Virus record (IMG/VR): IMGVR_UViG_3300028008_000005
Coordinates: 32,001-96,000 of that record
DNA from: a virus
Reading direction: 5' to 3' (one strand)
Length of the DNA: 64,000 nucleotides
Shown here piece by piece: positions 12,418 to 21,820 of the stretch; position 1 is the first letter of the stretch, and each line of letters begins with the position of its first letter. The position numbers and the translations under genes are program-made. Below the pieces are notes generated by a model. It saw nothing but the letters and a program-made list of their open reading frames with translations, was not told the origin of the DNA and searched no databases.

Positions 12418-12725
12418 AATTCGTTGAAGCATGTAATAGGAAGTTTGGACTCGGGTGCAAATCCCGATAGCTCCACCAAAAGAACACTGTCGGTGCTGTT
12501 GGGAAGCGCAGATGGACAACACTAGGACGCCGTTCGAATCGGAGCAGTGTTCTTCTGATGGGGCTATTCATAGATTCGACAGACAACTGAAAGCATGTGG
12601 AGAATAGGTGCGGGAGCTACCTTAAATGCAACAAACTCTATAAATGCAAACGATGAAGCATTTGCTCTAGCCGCATAGGTTAGATGAGGTATGGGCACCG
12701 CCTTATAATCAAACGGGCCTAAAAT
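12418..12725 (+). ncRNA. ssrA: circularly permuted (two-piece) tmRNA; acceptor piece ends CCA at 12478, coding piece starts at 12560, tag ANDEAFALAA at 12646-12678
   Basis: GGGGCTA/TAGCTCC-ACCA acceptor stem with G3:U; T-arm CGGG-TGCAAAT-CCCG; GATTCGAC D-loop; TAAAT-GCA resume context; tag ending ALAA-stop. Outer ends are approximate. Confidence 0.92.
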
Positions 12726-13796: not shown

Positions 13797-14050
13797 TGCC
13801 TACATATGACTACCACTGTAAATCCTGTGGGAATACGTTTACAAAATTATTAAAAATAGCTGATAGGAATTCCCCATCAGAAGTACCGTGTGAAGAGTGT
13901 GGTAATCTTGAAGTAGCTCAGAAGATTAGCGCACCTTTAATATCATATCAAGTTGGCGGGATATTGTCTAAGACTGATGGTGGTTGGAATGATACCCTTA
14001 AGAAAATAAAAGACGGAGCGGGACGGAATAATACAATTAATGTCAAATAG
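13796..14050 (+). CDS. FmdB-family zinc-ribbon protein
   Basis: MPTYDYHCKSCG...CEECG. Confidence 0.8.
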   Translation: MPTYDYHCKSCGNTFTKLLKIADRNSPSEVPCEECGNLEVAQKISAPLISYQVGGILSKTDGGWNDTLKKIKDGAGRNNTINVK

Positions 14051-14759
14051 CAACCAGCGCAATATGAAGACACTTAAGTTAAAGCTAGAAAATCTCCGAG
14101 AGCTGGAGCCAATAACAAAAAATCAAGAGAGGGTTTTTAAATCATATGAGGAAGGATTTAATCTTTGTTTATCTGGTTCAGCTGGATCTGGAAAGACTTT
14201 CTTGGCATTGTATCTTGCTCTAGAGGATGTGCTATCAAAGGAAACACCATATGAAAGGGTTGTTATTATTCGATCTGTAGTACCTACTCGCGACATCGGC
14301 TTTCTTCCTGGCAATGAAGATGAAAAGCTAGATGCCTATGCAGGACCTTATAAAGGTATTACCTCTGAGCTATTTGCGGACTCACAAGCCTGGGAAAAGC
14401 TGGGTAATCAAAGCCTAATTGAATTTACGTCTACCTCCTTTATTCGTGGTATAACTATTTCAAATGCTATTGTAGTGGTTGACGAAATGCAGAATCTTAA
14501 TTTCCACGAACTTGATTCTGTTATAACACGACTTGGCGAAGGCACAAAACTATTATTATGCGGAGACTATTACCAATCTGATTTTGATAAAGAAAGGGAT
14601 AGATCAGGCATTCTTAATTTCCTAAATATTGTTCAGAATATGAAGTACTTTGATCATATCGAATTTTCTTGGGAAGATATTGTTCGTAGCGGACTTGTTC
14701 GTGAGTATATTATGACTAAGGAGCAGATGGTAGAAGATGGCCAAGTTCAAAAGATTTGA
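14040..14759 (+). CDS. phoH: PhoH-family ATPase
   Basis: GSAGSGKT, IGFLPG, FIRGITI, DEMQN, GDYYQSD, IVRSGLV. Confidence 0.93.
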   Translation: MSNSNQRNMKTLKLKLENLRELEPITKNQERVFKSYEEGFNLCLSGSAGSGKTFLALYLALEDVLSKETPYERVVIIRSVVPTRDIGFLPGNEDEKLDAYAGPYKGITSELFADSQAWEKLGNQSLIEFTSTSFIRGITISNAIVVVDEMQNLNFHELDSVITRLGEGTKLLLCGDYYQSDFDKERDRSGILNFLNIVQNMKYFDHIEFSWEDIVRSGLVREYIMTKEQMVEDGQVQKI

Positions 14760-14862
14760 TCCTAGAAATAAAAAGGCAAATAAAAGCAAATCTTCTACAA
14801 AGCAAGATACCGACAAGCGTAAGCAACGTATTGTCAAACAGGGGTATACAAACGATCCCTAA
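14737..14862 (+). CDS. small basic protein (41 aa)
   Basis: MAKFKRFDPRNKKANK...; overlaps the phoH end. Confidence 0.45.
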   Translation: MAKFKRFDPRNKKANKSKSSTKQDTDKRKQRIVKQGYTNDP

Positions 14863-14899
14863 TGTGGTATAATATTTAATTATAATTGAAAAAGAGCTT

Positions 14900-15577
14900 A
14901 TGATGTTTCAACACGCTGACTTTAAACTAGACTATGATGACCTTACAGCTAAATCTGTTAAGAACGAACGTCGTTATGAAACCCCTGATGGTAAGTCCTA
15001 TCCTTCCGTTACTACAGTACTATCCATTCTTTCAGAAGACTTTATTCGAAAGTGGCGAAAAAGGGTAGGAGAAGATGAAGCAAATAAGGTTTCACATCGT
15101 GCATCTACACGCGGCACTGCAGTACATTCTATTATAGAAAAATACATCGACAACGATGAAAACTTCACAGAAGGTTTTATGCCTAATATTGTGGACAACT
15201 TTCTTGCTGTTCAAAAGGTACTAGATAATGGTATTGGCAAGGTATACTCTCAAGAAGCAGCTTTATATTCTCACCATCTAGGATTAGCAGGTCGTGTTGA
15301 CTGCGTTGCAGAATGGAATGGTAAGCTATCAATCATTGACTTTAAAACATCTAAAAAACTTAAAAAGAAGGAGTGGGTAGAGAACTACTTTATACAGGAA
15401 TCAGCATATGCTATTATGTGGGAAGAAAGAACTGGCATGCCTATTACCCAGCTAGTTACTATTATTGCAGTAGATAACGAAGAACCACAGGTGTTTATAG
15501 AACATCGTGACAATCACACAGAAAAGCTTTTAGCTACAATTAAAGAATATAATCGCCGTAAGATGTTCGGCAGATAA
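14900..15577 (+). CDS. PD-(D/E)XK exonuclease
   Basis: YPSVTTVL, RGTAVH, AGRVDC, IIDFKTS, QESAYA; promoter TATACA-N17-TATAAT at 14845-14873. Confidence 0.85.
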   Translation: MMFQHADFKLDYDDLTAKSVKNERRYETPDGKSYPSVTTVLSILSEDFIRKWRKRVGEDEANKVSHRASTRGTAVHSIIEKYIDNDENFTEGFMPNIVDNFLAVQKVLDNGIGKVYSQEAALYSHHLGLAGRVDCVAEWNGKLSIIDFKTSKKLKKKEWVENYFIQESAYAIMWEERTGMPITQLVTIIAVDNEEPQVFIEHRDNHTEKLLATIKEYNRRKMFGR

Positions 15578-15586
15578 GGATTTAAC

Positions 15587-16171
15587 ATGGCAGAATTAAC
15601 AGATCTATTTAGGAATAAAGAGAGTTTTACTGATAAGCCATTAAGTAGAATGTCAGACTATTATCTGTCTGGCCATTTAGATCGTCCAGAGGAATACATT
15701 GAATGGTTTGATCAAATTCGAAATGCGGGTGCTAACGATGTTATTGTTTTGCACATTAATTGCTTCGGTGGAGATCTTTATACGGCAATCCAATTTATTC
15801 GTGTATTGCAAGAATGCCAAGGTATTGTTGTAGCATCTGTAGAAGGTGCTTGCATGTCAGCTGCGACAATGATCTTTCTACAAGCTGATGAGGTAGAGAT
15901 ATCAAATCACTCTGCGTTTATGTTCCACAACTACTCTGGCGGAACAATCGGCAAGGGCGGGGAAATGATCGATCAGTTAACCTACGAGAGATCATGGTCA
16001 GAGAAACTTCTTAAAGAGGTTTATGCTGACTTTCTAAATGAAAAAGAAATAGAATCAATTCTTAATGGTAAAGATCTTTGGATGTCATCAGATGAGGTTA
16101 CAAAGAGAATGGACAGTAAAGCTAAAAAGATTAATAAGGAAATTTCTAAGAAAAGTAAGGCTATAAAATAG
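15587..16171 (+). CDS. ClpP-like serine protease
   Basis: INCFGG, GACMSAATMI (catalytic Ser), FMFHN (His), KDLWM. Confidence 0.8.
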   Translation: MAELTDLFRNKESFTDKPLSRMSDYYLSGHLDRPEEYIEWFDQIRNAGANDVIVLHINCFGGDLYTAIQFIRVLQECQGIVVASVEGACMSAATMIFLQADEVEISNHSAFMFHNYSGGTIGKGGEMIDQLTYERSWSEKLLKEVYADFLNEKEIESILNGKDLWMSSDEVTKRMDSKAKKINKEISKKSKAIK

Positions 16172-16207
16172 TATAAATAGTATTATATCAACTTGGTAGA
16201 GAATACT

Positions 16208-16876
16208 ATGCTATCTTTCAGCGATTATATTACCGAGGGTGTTAATGATCCTTCTATCTTTAAAGCTGTTTTCCTAGCCGGCGGACCAGGTTCTGGTAAG
16301 TCCTTTATGGTTGGGAAAACAGCTTTAACTGCTTTAGGCTTTAAGCTGATCAACTCTGATCCAGCATTTGAAGCTGCTCTTAAAAAAGCTGGCTTAACTA
16401 CTTCTGCAGACGATATTGCTTCTCCAAAAGGACAAGAACTCCGCGGCAAATCAAAGGTTTTGGTTGGTAAGCAATTAGATCTAGCCATTGATGGCAGGCT
16501 TGGATTAGTAATAGACGGTACAGGCAAAGACTTCGGTAAGATTAAACAGCAGGGAGATGCTCTAAGAGCTATCGGTTATTCTGTTGCTATGATCTTTGTT
16601 AATACTGATCTGGAAACTGCTCTTGCAAGAAACTCTAATCGAGATCGATCATTACCAGACGACATGGTAAGTAAGATGTGGAAAGATGTTCAGAATAACA
16701 TCGGCAAATTTTCTAATTACTTTGGTACTACCTTTATAGTTCTAGATAACTCTGATGGTTCTAATGCAGAAGGTGCAGCAATGGGAGCATATAAGAAGAT
16801 TAAAGCTTGGGCTAAGAAGACGCCTACAGAGAATCCGCGAGTTAAAAAATGGATTGATCGACAAAGAGGTTTATAA
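16208..16876 (+). CDS. P-loop kinase (zeta-toxin/AAA_33-like)
   Basis: AVFLAGGPGSGKS, INSD, VIDGTG; late promoter at 16172. Confidence 0.7.
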   Translation: MLSFSDYITEGVNDPSIFKAVFLAGGPGSGKSFMVGKTALTALGFKLINSDPAFEAALKKAGLTTSADDIASPKGQELRGKSKVLVGKQLDLAIDGRLGLVIDGTGKDFGKIKQQGDALRAIGYSVAMIFVNTDLETALARNSNRDRSLPDDMVSKMWKDVQNNIGKFSNYFGTTFIVLDNSDGSNAEGAAMGAYKKIKAWAKKTPTENPRVKKWIDRQRGL

Positions 16877-17136
16877 TGGACGATATATTTGATTTTGGTT
16901 TTACCGCCGTAGACGAAGCAGAACTTGAAGCAGTACAACAAGCATCCTCACAGCTGCAACAAACTTCCTCAGATGTGCAAGTCCTACAGGCTAAGATAGA
17001 TAAGCTATATAATTCTATTACGCCGCTTTTAACAAACCTAAAGAATAACCCAGAAAAAGAGTACATCCTCTGGCCGAAAAGACTAGAAAAAGTTGAGCAG
17101 TTTGAAACACATTTGCAAAAAATATATATGGAATGA
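16876..17136 (+). CDS. conserved hypothetical protein
   Basis: FDFGFTAVDE...NPEKEYILWP. Confidence 0.6.
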   Translation: MDDIFDFGFTAVDEAELEAVQQASSQLQQTSSDVQVLQAKIDKLYNSITPLLTNLKNNPEKEYILWPKRLEKVEQFETHLQKIYME

Positions 17137-17402
17137 TTATGACTAATCAGTGGCATGGTGGTAAAGGCGATAAAGTACGTAAGGTAAATCAAGCTAAATT
17201 TGATTCTAACTGGGATGCTATTTTTGGAAAGAAAGAAGATAAAAACTTTAAAAGAACCCAGCAAGACCTAACAGAATTAAATGGAGATGGTAATCGTCAA
17301 CGAGGTCATTACGGTGAAGACGAAAGCAACCCCGATGAAGATAAAGATCTTAAGTTTATGACAGCTAAAGACTATGTTAGTGGAACAGATAAAGATGAAT
17401 AG
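17133..17402 (+). CDS. hypothetical protein
   Basis: WHGGKGD...NWDAIF motif. Confidence 0.55.
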   Translation: MIMTNQWHGGKGDKVRKVNQAKFDSNWDAIFGKKEDKNFKRTQQDLTELNGDGNRQRGHYGEDESNPDEDKDLKFMTAKDYVSGTDKDE

Positions 17403-17856
17403 AGAAGCTGTCTACGAACAACTAAAAATTGATGAGGGAGTAGTATATGACATCTATCTCGACCATCTCGGCTATCCAACCTTCGGAGTTGGTCATCTTA
17501 TCCGAGAAAGTGATGAGGAATTCGGCAGGGGAGTTGGTACTGGAGTCAGTGAAGAACGAGTCAGGGCGTGTTTCGAACGTGACCTTGACATTGCAATCAG
17601 CGAATGCTGCACTCTATACGGCGAAGGGAGCTTTGGAGCATATCGAGATGAGGTCCAGCAGGTTCTGGTCAACATGATGTTTAACATGGGCCGACCGAGA
17701 CTCAGTAAATTTAAGAAATTCAATGCTGCTATTGCTAAAGGTGATTGGTTAGAAGCAGCAAAGGAAGGTAGAGACTCACGGTGGTATAATCAAGTTACTA
17801 ATCGTGCAGAAAGATTAATGATAAAACTTGAAATTTTAGAGAGTTTAGATAGATAA
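17395..17856 (+). CDS. GH24 T4-type lysozyme (endolysin)
   Basis: DEG...YLDHLGYPTFGVGH catalytic E-D-T; NMMFNMG; SRWYNQVTNRA. Confidence 0.9.
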   Translation: MNREAVYEQLKIDEGVVYDIYLDHLGYPTFGVGHLIRESDEEFGRGVGTGVSEERVRACFERDLDIAISECCTLYGEGSFGAYRDEVQQVLVNMMFNMGRPRLSKFKKFNAAIAKGDWLEAAKEGRDSRWYNQVTNRAERLMIKLEILESLDR

Positions 17857-20089: not shown

Positions 20090-21334
20090 ATGAATAAAAT
20101 AAACGCTGCGGCAGGAACATTAGGTGTTCTATTGCTAATGCTTGGACTTAGAGCAGAAGCGCATGACGATGTAAAGATCGACTACGCAGAGAACGTAGCC
20201 CCTATCTTTGTAGAACAATGTCAAAGCTGCCACCGTGAAGGTGGTATTGCACCGTGGGCAATGAGTGACTTTAGAATGTTGCAAGCATTCGCCCCTGCAA
20301 TCCGTGAAGCAGTTACAACATTAGAAATGCCACCCGGGCAGATTGATCGCAAATATGCAAAGGATATTATCAATCATCGCACACTCAGTCATACAGAAAT
20401 GGAGACTATTGTACAGTGGATTGATGCAGGCGCTCCTGTCGAAGGTGACAGAGATCCGCTAACAGAAACTGTATACTCAACATCAGAGTGGGTACACGGT
20501 GAGCCTGATATGATTGTCTATGTACCAGCACAAGAAATTCCTGCTGGTCCTTCTGCGATTCCATATCGTTATGTTGGTGTAGACTTAGGACTAACTGAAG
20601 ACAAATGGCTTCGTGGTTCAGAGTTTTTGCCTTCAGAGCCTACAGTAATGCATCACATGCTAAACTCAGTAAGTGTACCGGGAGAGCGTAATGGCAACAT
20701 CTTAGGCACACAAGGTGGCGGACAAGAAGAAATGAACTACGCTAGTGTGAGTGCATATGTACCAGGAGGCGATCCAGAATTTTATGACGAGAACACTGGT
20801 GGTTTGTTAAGAGCAGGTTCAACAGTAAACTTACAGTTACACTACACACCAGACGGCAGAGCAAGAACTGACGAAGCAAGAATTGGTTTGTACTTTCACG
20901 ATGAAGGTGTAGTACCAGAAGAGAGAATGGCAGGCGACTGTGCTTGTATCTTCCCTAACAACTGGACAACTATCCCTGCATTTGATCCTAACTTTGTACA
21001 AACAGCAGAAGTAGTTCTAAAGCAAGATGTAATGCTGCACACATTCTTACCACACATGCACTTCCGTGGCAAGAGTATGAAAGCAACTGCATTCTATCCA
21101 GACGGCACTGTAGAAGAACTAATTGATGTACCAAGATATGAATATGCTTGGCAACTATCATACACGTGGAGAGAGCCTAAGTTCTTACCTGTAGGTACAA
21201 GACTGTTTGTAGAGGGAGCATTTGACAACTCAGCAGAGAATAAAATGAATCCCGATCCTAGCAGAGACGTACCGTGGGGTCAGATGAGCGAAGATGAAAT
21301 GTTCTTTGGAGCATTTACTTGGAAAAACCTATAA
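20090..21334 (+). CDS. exported cytochrome c / copper type II (PHM/DBH-like) monooxygenase, paralog B
   Basis: Signal peptide ending AEA; CQSCH; VMHH, QLHY, PHMHFRG and DEM motifs. Confidence 0.82.
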
Positions 21335-21344
21335 GGGGACTAAT

Positions 21345-21416
21345 ATGTGGACTAAACCAGCTTATGAAAATATAAGACTTGGATTTGAAATCACTATGTA
21401 TTTTAGTGTTAGATAA
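21345..21416 (+). CDS. pqqA: PQQ precursor peptide PqqA (23 aa, not in ORF track)
   Basis: [23 protein letters not shown]; W-x-K-P...R-x-G-F-E-x-T-M-Y signature with ExxxY; AAGGGG RBS. Confidence 0.93.
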
Positions 21417-21445: not shown

Positions 21446-21775
21446 ATGTCAGAAGCAGAAATAAAAAAATCTGGTCATCATCCTGCCGATACAAATGGTG
21501 ATGGTAAAGTAAGCCCTAAAGAACAAGATATGTACATGGAATTTAGGCGTAAAGAGCTTGAAGACCAAGATGCAATGCGGGATGCACAAAGGAAGATGGC
21601 ATGGTTTGCTTTAGGTGGTATGCTTCTTTATCCTTTTGCAGTTGTAGTCGCATCCATTGCAGGATTAGACCAAGCTCAGGCAACTCTCGGTGATATGGCA
21701 CCTACATATTTTGTTGCTGTTGCTGGTATTGTTGCTGCCTTTTTTGGGGCTCAGGCATTTGCTAAGAAACCATAA
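21446..21775 (+). CDS. membrane protein with EF-hand-like loop and 2 TM helices
   Basis: DTNGDGKVSPKE loop; two hydrophobic helices. Confidence 0.6.
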   Translation: MSEAEIKKSGHHPADTNGDGKVSPKEQDMYMEFRRKELEDQDAMRDAQRKMAWFALGGMLLYPFAVVVASIAGLDQAQATLGDMAPTYFVAVAGIVAAFFGAQAFAKKP

Positions 21776-21779
21776 TAAG

Positions 21780-21820
21780 ATTAATACGGGTAGATTTGCC
21801 TTGAATCTACCCGTATTAAT
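21780..21820. terminator. perfect 17-bp inverted repeat between convergent operons
   Basis: ATTAATACGGGTAGATT-N7-AATCTACCCGTATTAAT. Confidence 0.75.

Follow-up and report, generated by a model that had tools for sequence, protein, structure and literature searches.

A stand-alone pqqA gene behind an oxygenase pair in a T4-like phage: a probable source of PQQ precursor for the infected host

The pqqA locus

The window analyzed here is the whole stretch of 64,000 nucleotides that corresponds to bases 32001-96000 of a 114,689-bp IMG/VR virus record (IMGVR_UViG_3300028008_000005), which has a CheckV completeness of ~64%. Within it lies a tightly spaced, co-directional block of four genes, in which the paralogous genes A and B are followed by pqqA as the third gene and by a gene for a small membrane protein (Table 1). 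The hairpin behind the last gene is likely a bidirectional terminator that ends the block.

Table 1. Features of the pqqA locus and its surroundings, in window coordinates
Feature	Position	Strand	Description
Permuted two-piece tmRNA	12419-12678	+	Rfam RF04321, 97.3 bits; ARAGORN tag ANDEAFALAA
Genes just upstream of the oxygenase island	14040-17856	+	PhoH, PD-(D/E)XK nuclease, ClpP-like protease, zeta-toxin/AAA-type kinase-like protein, lysozyme
Paralog A, 431 aa	18681-19976	+	Signal peptide, CxxCH heme-c motif, PHM/DBH-like copper monooxygenase body
Paralog B, 414 aa	20090-21334	+	Same architecture as A
Shine-Dalgarno-like AAGGGG	21333-21338	+	6 nt before the pqqA ATG
pqqA	21345-21416	+	23 codons and TAA; PQQ precursor peptide, Glu15 and Tyr19 in E-x-x-x-Y
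109-aa protein	21446-21775	+	One EF-hand-like loop, two predicted membrane helices; last gene of the co-directional block
17-bp-stem hairpin	21780-21820	.	Between convergent genes; found by terminator scan

The pqqA reading frame extends from the ATG at 21345 to the TAA at 21414-21416 and encodes a peptide of 23 residues, [23 protein letters not shown]. Re-reading of the sequence reproduced the coordinates, the peptide, and the AAGGGG ribosome-binding site given in a preliminary description of this DNA, and the PqqA identity proposed there was borne out by profile scoring, with 41.2 bits against the Pfam family PqqA (PF08042; gathering cut-off 21.1, E = 1.5e-10) and 49.1 bits against the NCBIfam equivalog TIGR02107 (cut-off 20, E = 3.4e-13). 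These matches are far beyond chance, with scores about twice the curated cut-offs, and window positions 21345-21416 were the sole PqqA match when all six frames of the 114,689-bp record were searched (E = 1.8e-10). All of the family-defining positions are present, namely the leader W-x-K-P (W2, K4, and P5), R11, G13, E15, T17, and Y19, and both the length (~22-24 residues in PqqA, longer in some species) and the spacing of E-x-x-x-Y are those of the family. The leader W-x-K-P ... R-x-G, a putative recognition element for PqqD, is likewise retained in the phage peptide, which has no export signal. The ORF in the window is a genuine and intact gene of the PqqA family.

The AAGGGG motif overlaps the TAA stop (21332-21334) of the upstream 414-codon gene B. 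An alternative in-frame ATG at 21294 would yield a form of 40 residues; this start codon lies inside the upstream gene and has no Shine-Dalgarno sequence, and the HMMs align to the last 23 residues only, so that the longer product is not credible. The 23-residue form is taken as the product because the start at 21294 lies inside the upstream gene and lacks a ribosome-binding site. No unusual RNA fold was detected around pqqA (z-score 0.22), and no Rfam family, structured RNA, or riboswitch was matched near the gene.

The products of A and B share 27% identity over ~400 residues (E = 1e-34). In an alignment of 89 sequences, the conserved residues of B comprise C44, C47, H48, an M-P-P motif, H188, H189, H251, H322, H324, and M404, and the conserved His/Met set has the pattern of the copper ligands in peptidylglycine alpha-hydroxylating monooxygenase (PHM) and in dopamine beta-hydroxylase (DBH), with three His for a predicted CuH site and two His and one Met for a predicted CuM site. 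An AlphaFold2 model of B (mean pLDDT 89.1) retrieved PHM and DBH first in a Foldseek search (E ~1e-12, target TM-score ~0.6), and the Pfam family Cu2_monoox_C scored below threshold in the viral protein and weakly in cellular homologues. A and B are read as exported heme-c/copper monooxygenase paralogs with a predicted two-domain beta-sandwich of the PHM/DBH fold and the corresponding predicted ligand set. The B family comprises 11,112 representatives at E up to 0.001, and its cellular members usually carry an additional N-terminal AhpC/TSA redoxin domain. No PHROG match was found for A or B, which occur in at least 113 IMG/VR contigs, with A always upstream of B wherever the viral locus has enough sequence. 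The 109-residue protein matches EF-hand_5 weakly (E = 0.0055); it contains a canonical-looking EF-hand loop (D-T-N-G-D-G-K-V-S-P-K-E), followed by its two membrane helices. A metagenomic protein of 1064 residues (P0135) consists of two cytochrome-c/copper-oxygenase units fused with EF-hands, a fusion that hints that A, B, and the 109-residue protein may work together.

The carrier phage

T4-like replication and baseplate genes flank pqqA on both sides. The window encodes a ribonucleotide reductase, a gp5-like hub/lysozyme, and gp6- and gp7-like baseplate wedge proteins, together with gp59-like, gp32-like, and baseplate hub proteins. The nearest cultured relatives of the gp6-like protein, at ~38% identity, are those of the OM43 myophage Melnitz and of the pelagimyophages HTVC008M and Mosig. 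The carrier is a T4-like myovirus that stands at some distance from other members of the marine T4-like group. Immediately 5' of the oxygenase island lies a typical accessory region of marine T4-like phages. No tRNA genes were found in the window. The permuted tmRNA of the window is of a kind that Melnitz and other marine T4-like phages reportedly carry as well, and it gives no clue to the host because this kind is common in marine T4-like phages.

The remainder of the PQQ pathway was searched for in the whole record. Profiles for pqqB, pqqC, pqqD, and pqqE (TIGR02108, TIGR02111, PF05402, and TIGR02109, respectively) found no match in the 114.7-kb record, which is ~64% complete, and neither did tblastn of the same record with a set of PqqBCDE proteins from Acinetobacter. 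The earlier statement that the window contains no pqqB-E therefore holds, and it extends to the rest of the record. A PQQ-repeat dehydrogenase was not found in the record either. Hence, pqqA stands alone in the 114.7 kb at hand, from which about a third of the genome is missing. Judged by sequence and setting, pqqA is a host-type gene in a bona fide viral genome with viral genes on both flanks, and it would be classed as a viral auxiliary metabolic gene.

Viral pqqA genes in other phages

Stand-alone pqqA is common among viral contigs. A degenerate DNA pattern for the conserved PqqA core, run against IMG/VR, retrieved at least 120 contigs, and a complete Met-started frame of 23-24 residues is present in all but one of the matches listed. 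No pqqB-E gene was found in the fetched flanks of the listed contigs. A Shine-Dalgarno-like core lies 4-12 nt upstream of the start codon in 93 of the 96 distinct viral copies among the matches listed, compared with 11% of random ATGs in the same contigs. Pooled pairwise differences among the viral copies gave a pS of 0.70 and a pN of 0.19, with an in-frame ratio of 0.27 against 0.46-2.7 in the other five frames, a measure inflated by ascertainment, since the pattern used for retrieval itself holds the conserved residues constant.

Clustering of the neighboring genes placed pqqA directly 3' of a major capsid gene in many of the matches listed, with 32 loci of the T7-like type and 18 loci with T4 gp23, a placement that suggests strong late expression. 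Capsid-adjacent copies of pqqA (e.g., in loci L119, L113, and L066) precede tail genes. In related T4-like contigs, pqqA occupies several other positions, for example beside endolysin-like and gp59-like genes. The carriers of viral pqqA are bona fide phages of several types. PqqA-like frames are also found in cultured phages in GenBank, all of them phages of methylotrophs, namely Venkman, P19250A, MEP301, MEP401, MEP402, and four Melnitz isolates, where they are mostly unannotated or lie under a gene call on the opposite strand. The best tblastn hits among phage records, two matches under the name 'Acinetobacter phage MD-2021a', were rejected, as they represent a bacterial ppk-pqqABCDE operon and not a stand-alone phage gene. 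One of these records (L240, CAKLQF020000010.1) reads ppk-pqqA-pqqB-pqqC-pqqD-pqqE and looks bacterial or like a prophage flank.

The phages of OM43/LD28 methylotrophs (Venkman, Melnitz, P19250A, MEP301, MEP401, and MEP402) resemble the phage studied here in carrying intact PqqA-like ORFs without pqqB-E, but their PqqA peptides are 54-63% identical to the present one and are encoded at other genome positions. Viral pqqA has also been published before. A virus from Lake Baikal with a predicted Methylophilaceae host was found to carry a PqqA gene, for which an auxiliary metabolic role was proposed (Coutinho et al., 2020; PMC7678222), and pqqA has been listed among virus-encoded genes in reservoir sediment (PMC13188868, 2026); in the Melnitz paper, PQQ is mentioned only as a medium supplement (PMC9004378). 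The Baikal virus VP_266 is similar to the present case in having a stand-alone PQQ precursor gene on a viral contig that would support PQQ-dependent metabolism of the host (PMC7678222). It differs in having a predicted Methylophilaceae host and in that related populations also carry a methanol dehydrogenase, whereas the record analyzed here has no PQQ-repeat dehydrogenase, encodes a peptide of a different subtype ([10 protein letters not shown]), and places it in an oxygenase island. Viral pqqA is thus already published and common, and the interpretation given below matches the published one.

Bacterial relatives of the phage peptide

The phage peptide shares its length, leader, and E-x-x-x-Y core with bacterial PqqA (PF08042/TIGR02107), which is encoded both in operons and as orphan copies. 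It differs from the operon gene in its surroundings, as bacterial operon pqqA is followed by pqqB (e.g., in L240) and no gene of the pathway lies close to the phage copy. In a sample of 401 species of Gammaproteobacteria, the class of the MAGs that bear B homologues, a PqqA match was found in 70, a tally that includes four unpublished genomes (G301, G044, G313, and G146) on which none of the specific statements here depends, and the best matches are 73-79% identical to the phage peptide. One of these genomes (G082) shares the exact core R-L-G-F-E-I-T-M-Y. By its sequence, the phage peptide is of the gammaproteobacterial type and distinct from the subtype found in the cultured OM43 phages. The two genomes with the best PqqA that were tested (G199 and G082) also encode PqqC, and they are considered real PQQ producers because PqqC is present. 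Some of the sampled bacterial genomes contain 6-8 dispersed copies of pqqA. The suggestion in the preliminary description of a PQQ-producing proteobacterial host gains partial support from the type of the peptide and from pqqC in both of the best-match genomes tested.

The cellular relatives of the oxygenase genes point elsewhere. In gammaproteobacterial MAGs, one of which is assigned to Pseudohongiella, B homologues are single-copy with no pqqA within 6 kb; pqqA was not found in any of 5 MAGs with B homologues, nor pqqC in the 3 of those MAGs that were tested, and no B homologue was found in the 5 genomes with the closest PqqA. On the basis of these genomes, the idea of PQQ-making cellular donors for the oxygenase genes was rejected. 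A 7-kb contig of the MAG Pseudomonadales bacterium HM.19 (L123, JALRBG010000283.1) encodes A and B at ~75% identity and falls among the viral sequences in the B tree; probably of viral origin and wrongly binned with the MAG, it offers at best a weak hint on host range.

Distribution of pqqA among oxygenase loci

Through protein B, and thus independently of pqqA, 80 viral loci were retrieved, 77 of which include downstream sequence. Of these 77 loci, 17 contain pqqA, always in the slot right after B, and all 17 copies are intact and keep both E15 and Y19. The order A-B-pqqA occurs in 7 distinct viral lineages, across which B is 80-100% identical. The slot after B is variable in content. For example, two loci (L189 and L198) run from B straight into the EF-hand gene without pqqA, and another (L171) has nearly the same junction and ribosome-binding context as the window, with a different small ORF in place of pqqA. 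Small conserved hydrophobic ORFs follow B in L171, L205, L228, L230, and L123, one of which begins M-Y-G-G-I-P. The sequence G-F-A-I-T-L-Y behind B in L205, L230, and L123 was considered as a decayed pqqA and rejected, since these residues close a small hydrophobic membrane ORF that is itself conserved and shows synonymous changes from locus to locus. The closest relatives of the present locus (L160 and L161, with B 93% identical) lack pqqA. In the pqqA slot of L160 (positions 1600-1760), an ORF of 35 residues starts M-K-N-G-K-P-K-I-R-L and reads G-I-D-F-S-H-L where PqqA reads G-F-E-I-T-M-Y, which could be due to chance or could mark a strongly diverged PqqA relative without the Tyr. Because pqqA is present in 17 of 77 related islands and missing from the closest relatives, the gene appears to be dispensable and subject to fast turnover.

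Such a distribution raises the possibility that pqqA is near-neutral hitch-hiking cargo, that is, a tiny gene, often multicopy in the host, which is repeatedly gained by illegitimate recombination with little or no effect on fitness. In a quick maximum-likelihood tree of B, the 7 pqqA-positive lineages are scattered and require at least 5 changes, a number as low as that needed by 114 of 500 label shuffles. The lack of pqqA in the nearest relatives, the other small ORFs in the same slot including the preserved junction of L171, the several genome positions in related T4-like contigs, and the dispersed copies in some bacterial genomes point in the same direction. However, no decayed copy was detected by blastn-short or low-stringency tblastn in the 60 loci without pqqA, and the copies seen are all intact, with start codon, Shine-Dalgarno sequence, and catalytic residues. 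In addition, synonymous differences among the viral copies are near saturation with the peptide kept, and pqqA is found again in phages of unrelated types, where a capsid gene often precedes it. Neutral carriage is accordingly regarded as an unlikely explanation.

A second possibility is that the phage peptide acts as a decoy or inhibitor, occupying PqqD and PqqE of the host and lowering or redirecting PQQ synthesis. Conservation extends to the leader residues that PqqD presumably reads, and a peptide in large excess could titrate this chaperone. The cross-linking Glu and Tyr would not be needed for such a function, yet they are kept in all 17 copies that were retrieved independently of the motif; moreover, all positions at which viral and cellular peptides differ are variable within bacteria as well, and a benefit to the phage from less PQQ is not apparent. 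An inhibitory function is therefore very unlikely.

The position of pqqA could also reflect a functional module with its neighbors, in which the peptide is a substrate of the PHM-like oxygenases, or the PQQ derived from it feeds electrons through PQQ dehydrogenases to their cytochrome c domains. This arrangement would agree with the four co-directional, tightly spaced genes that end at one terminal hairpin, with the recurrence of the A-B-pqqA order in lineages with highly similar B, and with the activity of PHM, the closest solved fold, on peptides, but it is most improbable, as 60 of the 77 A-B loci lack pqqA, more than 100 viral pqqA loci among the matches listed have neither A nor B, A and B are predicted to be periplasmic (signal peptide and heme-c motif) whereas PqqA has no export signal, and the searched cellular genomes with B have no pqqA or pqqC, just as those with the closest PqqA have no B. 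It is equally hard to credit that pqqA is one of several interchangeable accessories of a phage periplasmic redox island, made up of the two heme-c/copper monooxygenases and the EF-hand membrane protein, with PQQ driving electrons to the cytochrome c domains or the peptide as substrate. The patchy occurrence, the variable slot, the scattered tree, the pqqA loci without A or B, the cellular genomes, and the difference in export together argue against a common pathway with the oxygenases and for pqqA as an independent mobile cargo that came to occupy a slot for accessory genes.

Proposed role in precursor supply

PQQ is a cofactor of periplasmic dehydrogenases that oxidize methanol, other alcohols, and sugars in methylotrophs and many Gram-negative bacteria. 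During its synthesis, PqqE together with PqqD cross-links the Glu and the Tyr of PqqA, and one peptide is consumed per PQQ. The favored reading, with a probability of roughly 60%, is that the phage gene is host-derived cargo that would keep this consumed precursor supplied to the PqqB-E enzymes of the host during infection. It starts from direct observations, namely the family membership of pqqA, its intactness and translation signals, its conservation in numerous viral lineages, and the lack of pqqB-E in the phage record, and expression of the gene, processing by host enzymes, and a benefit to the phage may be extrapolated from them. The gene would be translated in the cytoplasm of the infected cell, most likely from a transcript that it shares with the oxygenase pair upstream, and the 23-residue peptide would be passed to PqqD and PqqE of a host that is assumed to encode pqqB-E. 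After cross-linking of Glu15 and Tyr19, the peptide would be converted to PQQ through PqqB and PqqC of the host. Following the takeover of transcription by the phage, the pqqA mRNA and peptide of the host should fade and the PqqB-E enzymes should persist. As every PQQ made uses up one peptide, and as the peptide is the component with the short life, the phage copy would allow PQQ synthesis to continue during infection, and sustained PQQ would let the periplasmic PQQ-dependent dehydrogenases keep feeding the respiratory chain.

Precursor supply is a plausible role in light of the conserved Glu15 and Tyr19 and the conserved ribosome-binding site, and it agrees with the published reading of the Baikal gene (PMC7678222). 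The patchy presence in 17 of 77 islands and the lack of pqqA in the closest relatives speak against it. The need for extra PQQ synthesis within one infection is also not obvious, because PQQ is a tightly bound cofactor that is not consumed by catalysis. A parallel may be drawn with psbA of cyanophages, where the phage likewise carries only the fastest-used-up component of a host machine. Unlike pqqA, psbA specifies a subunit of a complex, and experiments have demonstrated both that it is expressed and that it benefits the phage, whereas the product of phage pqqA is a consumed biosynthetic substrate that is known from sequence.

Implications

The published concept of viral pqqA is left unchanged by the present analysis, which adds several points to it. 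Stand-alone viral pqqA is far more common than one would expect from its two brief appearances in the literature, and gene callers systematically miss it because it is only 72 nt long. Its range includes a marine T4-like lineage beyond the known phages of methylotrophs. The gene behaves like a small mobile cassette, gained and lost at slots for accessory genes, and its place next to the PHM-like oxygenase pair is not fixed. If the proposed role is true, a phage that re-supplies the sole consumed ingredient of PQQ synthesis would exert a compact form of viral control over the energy metabolism of its host.
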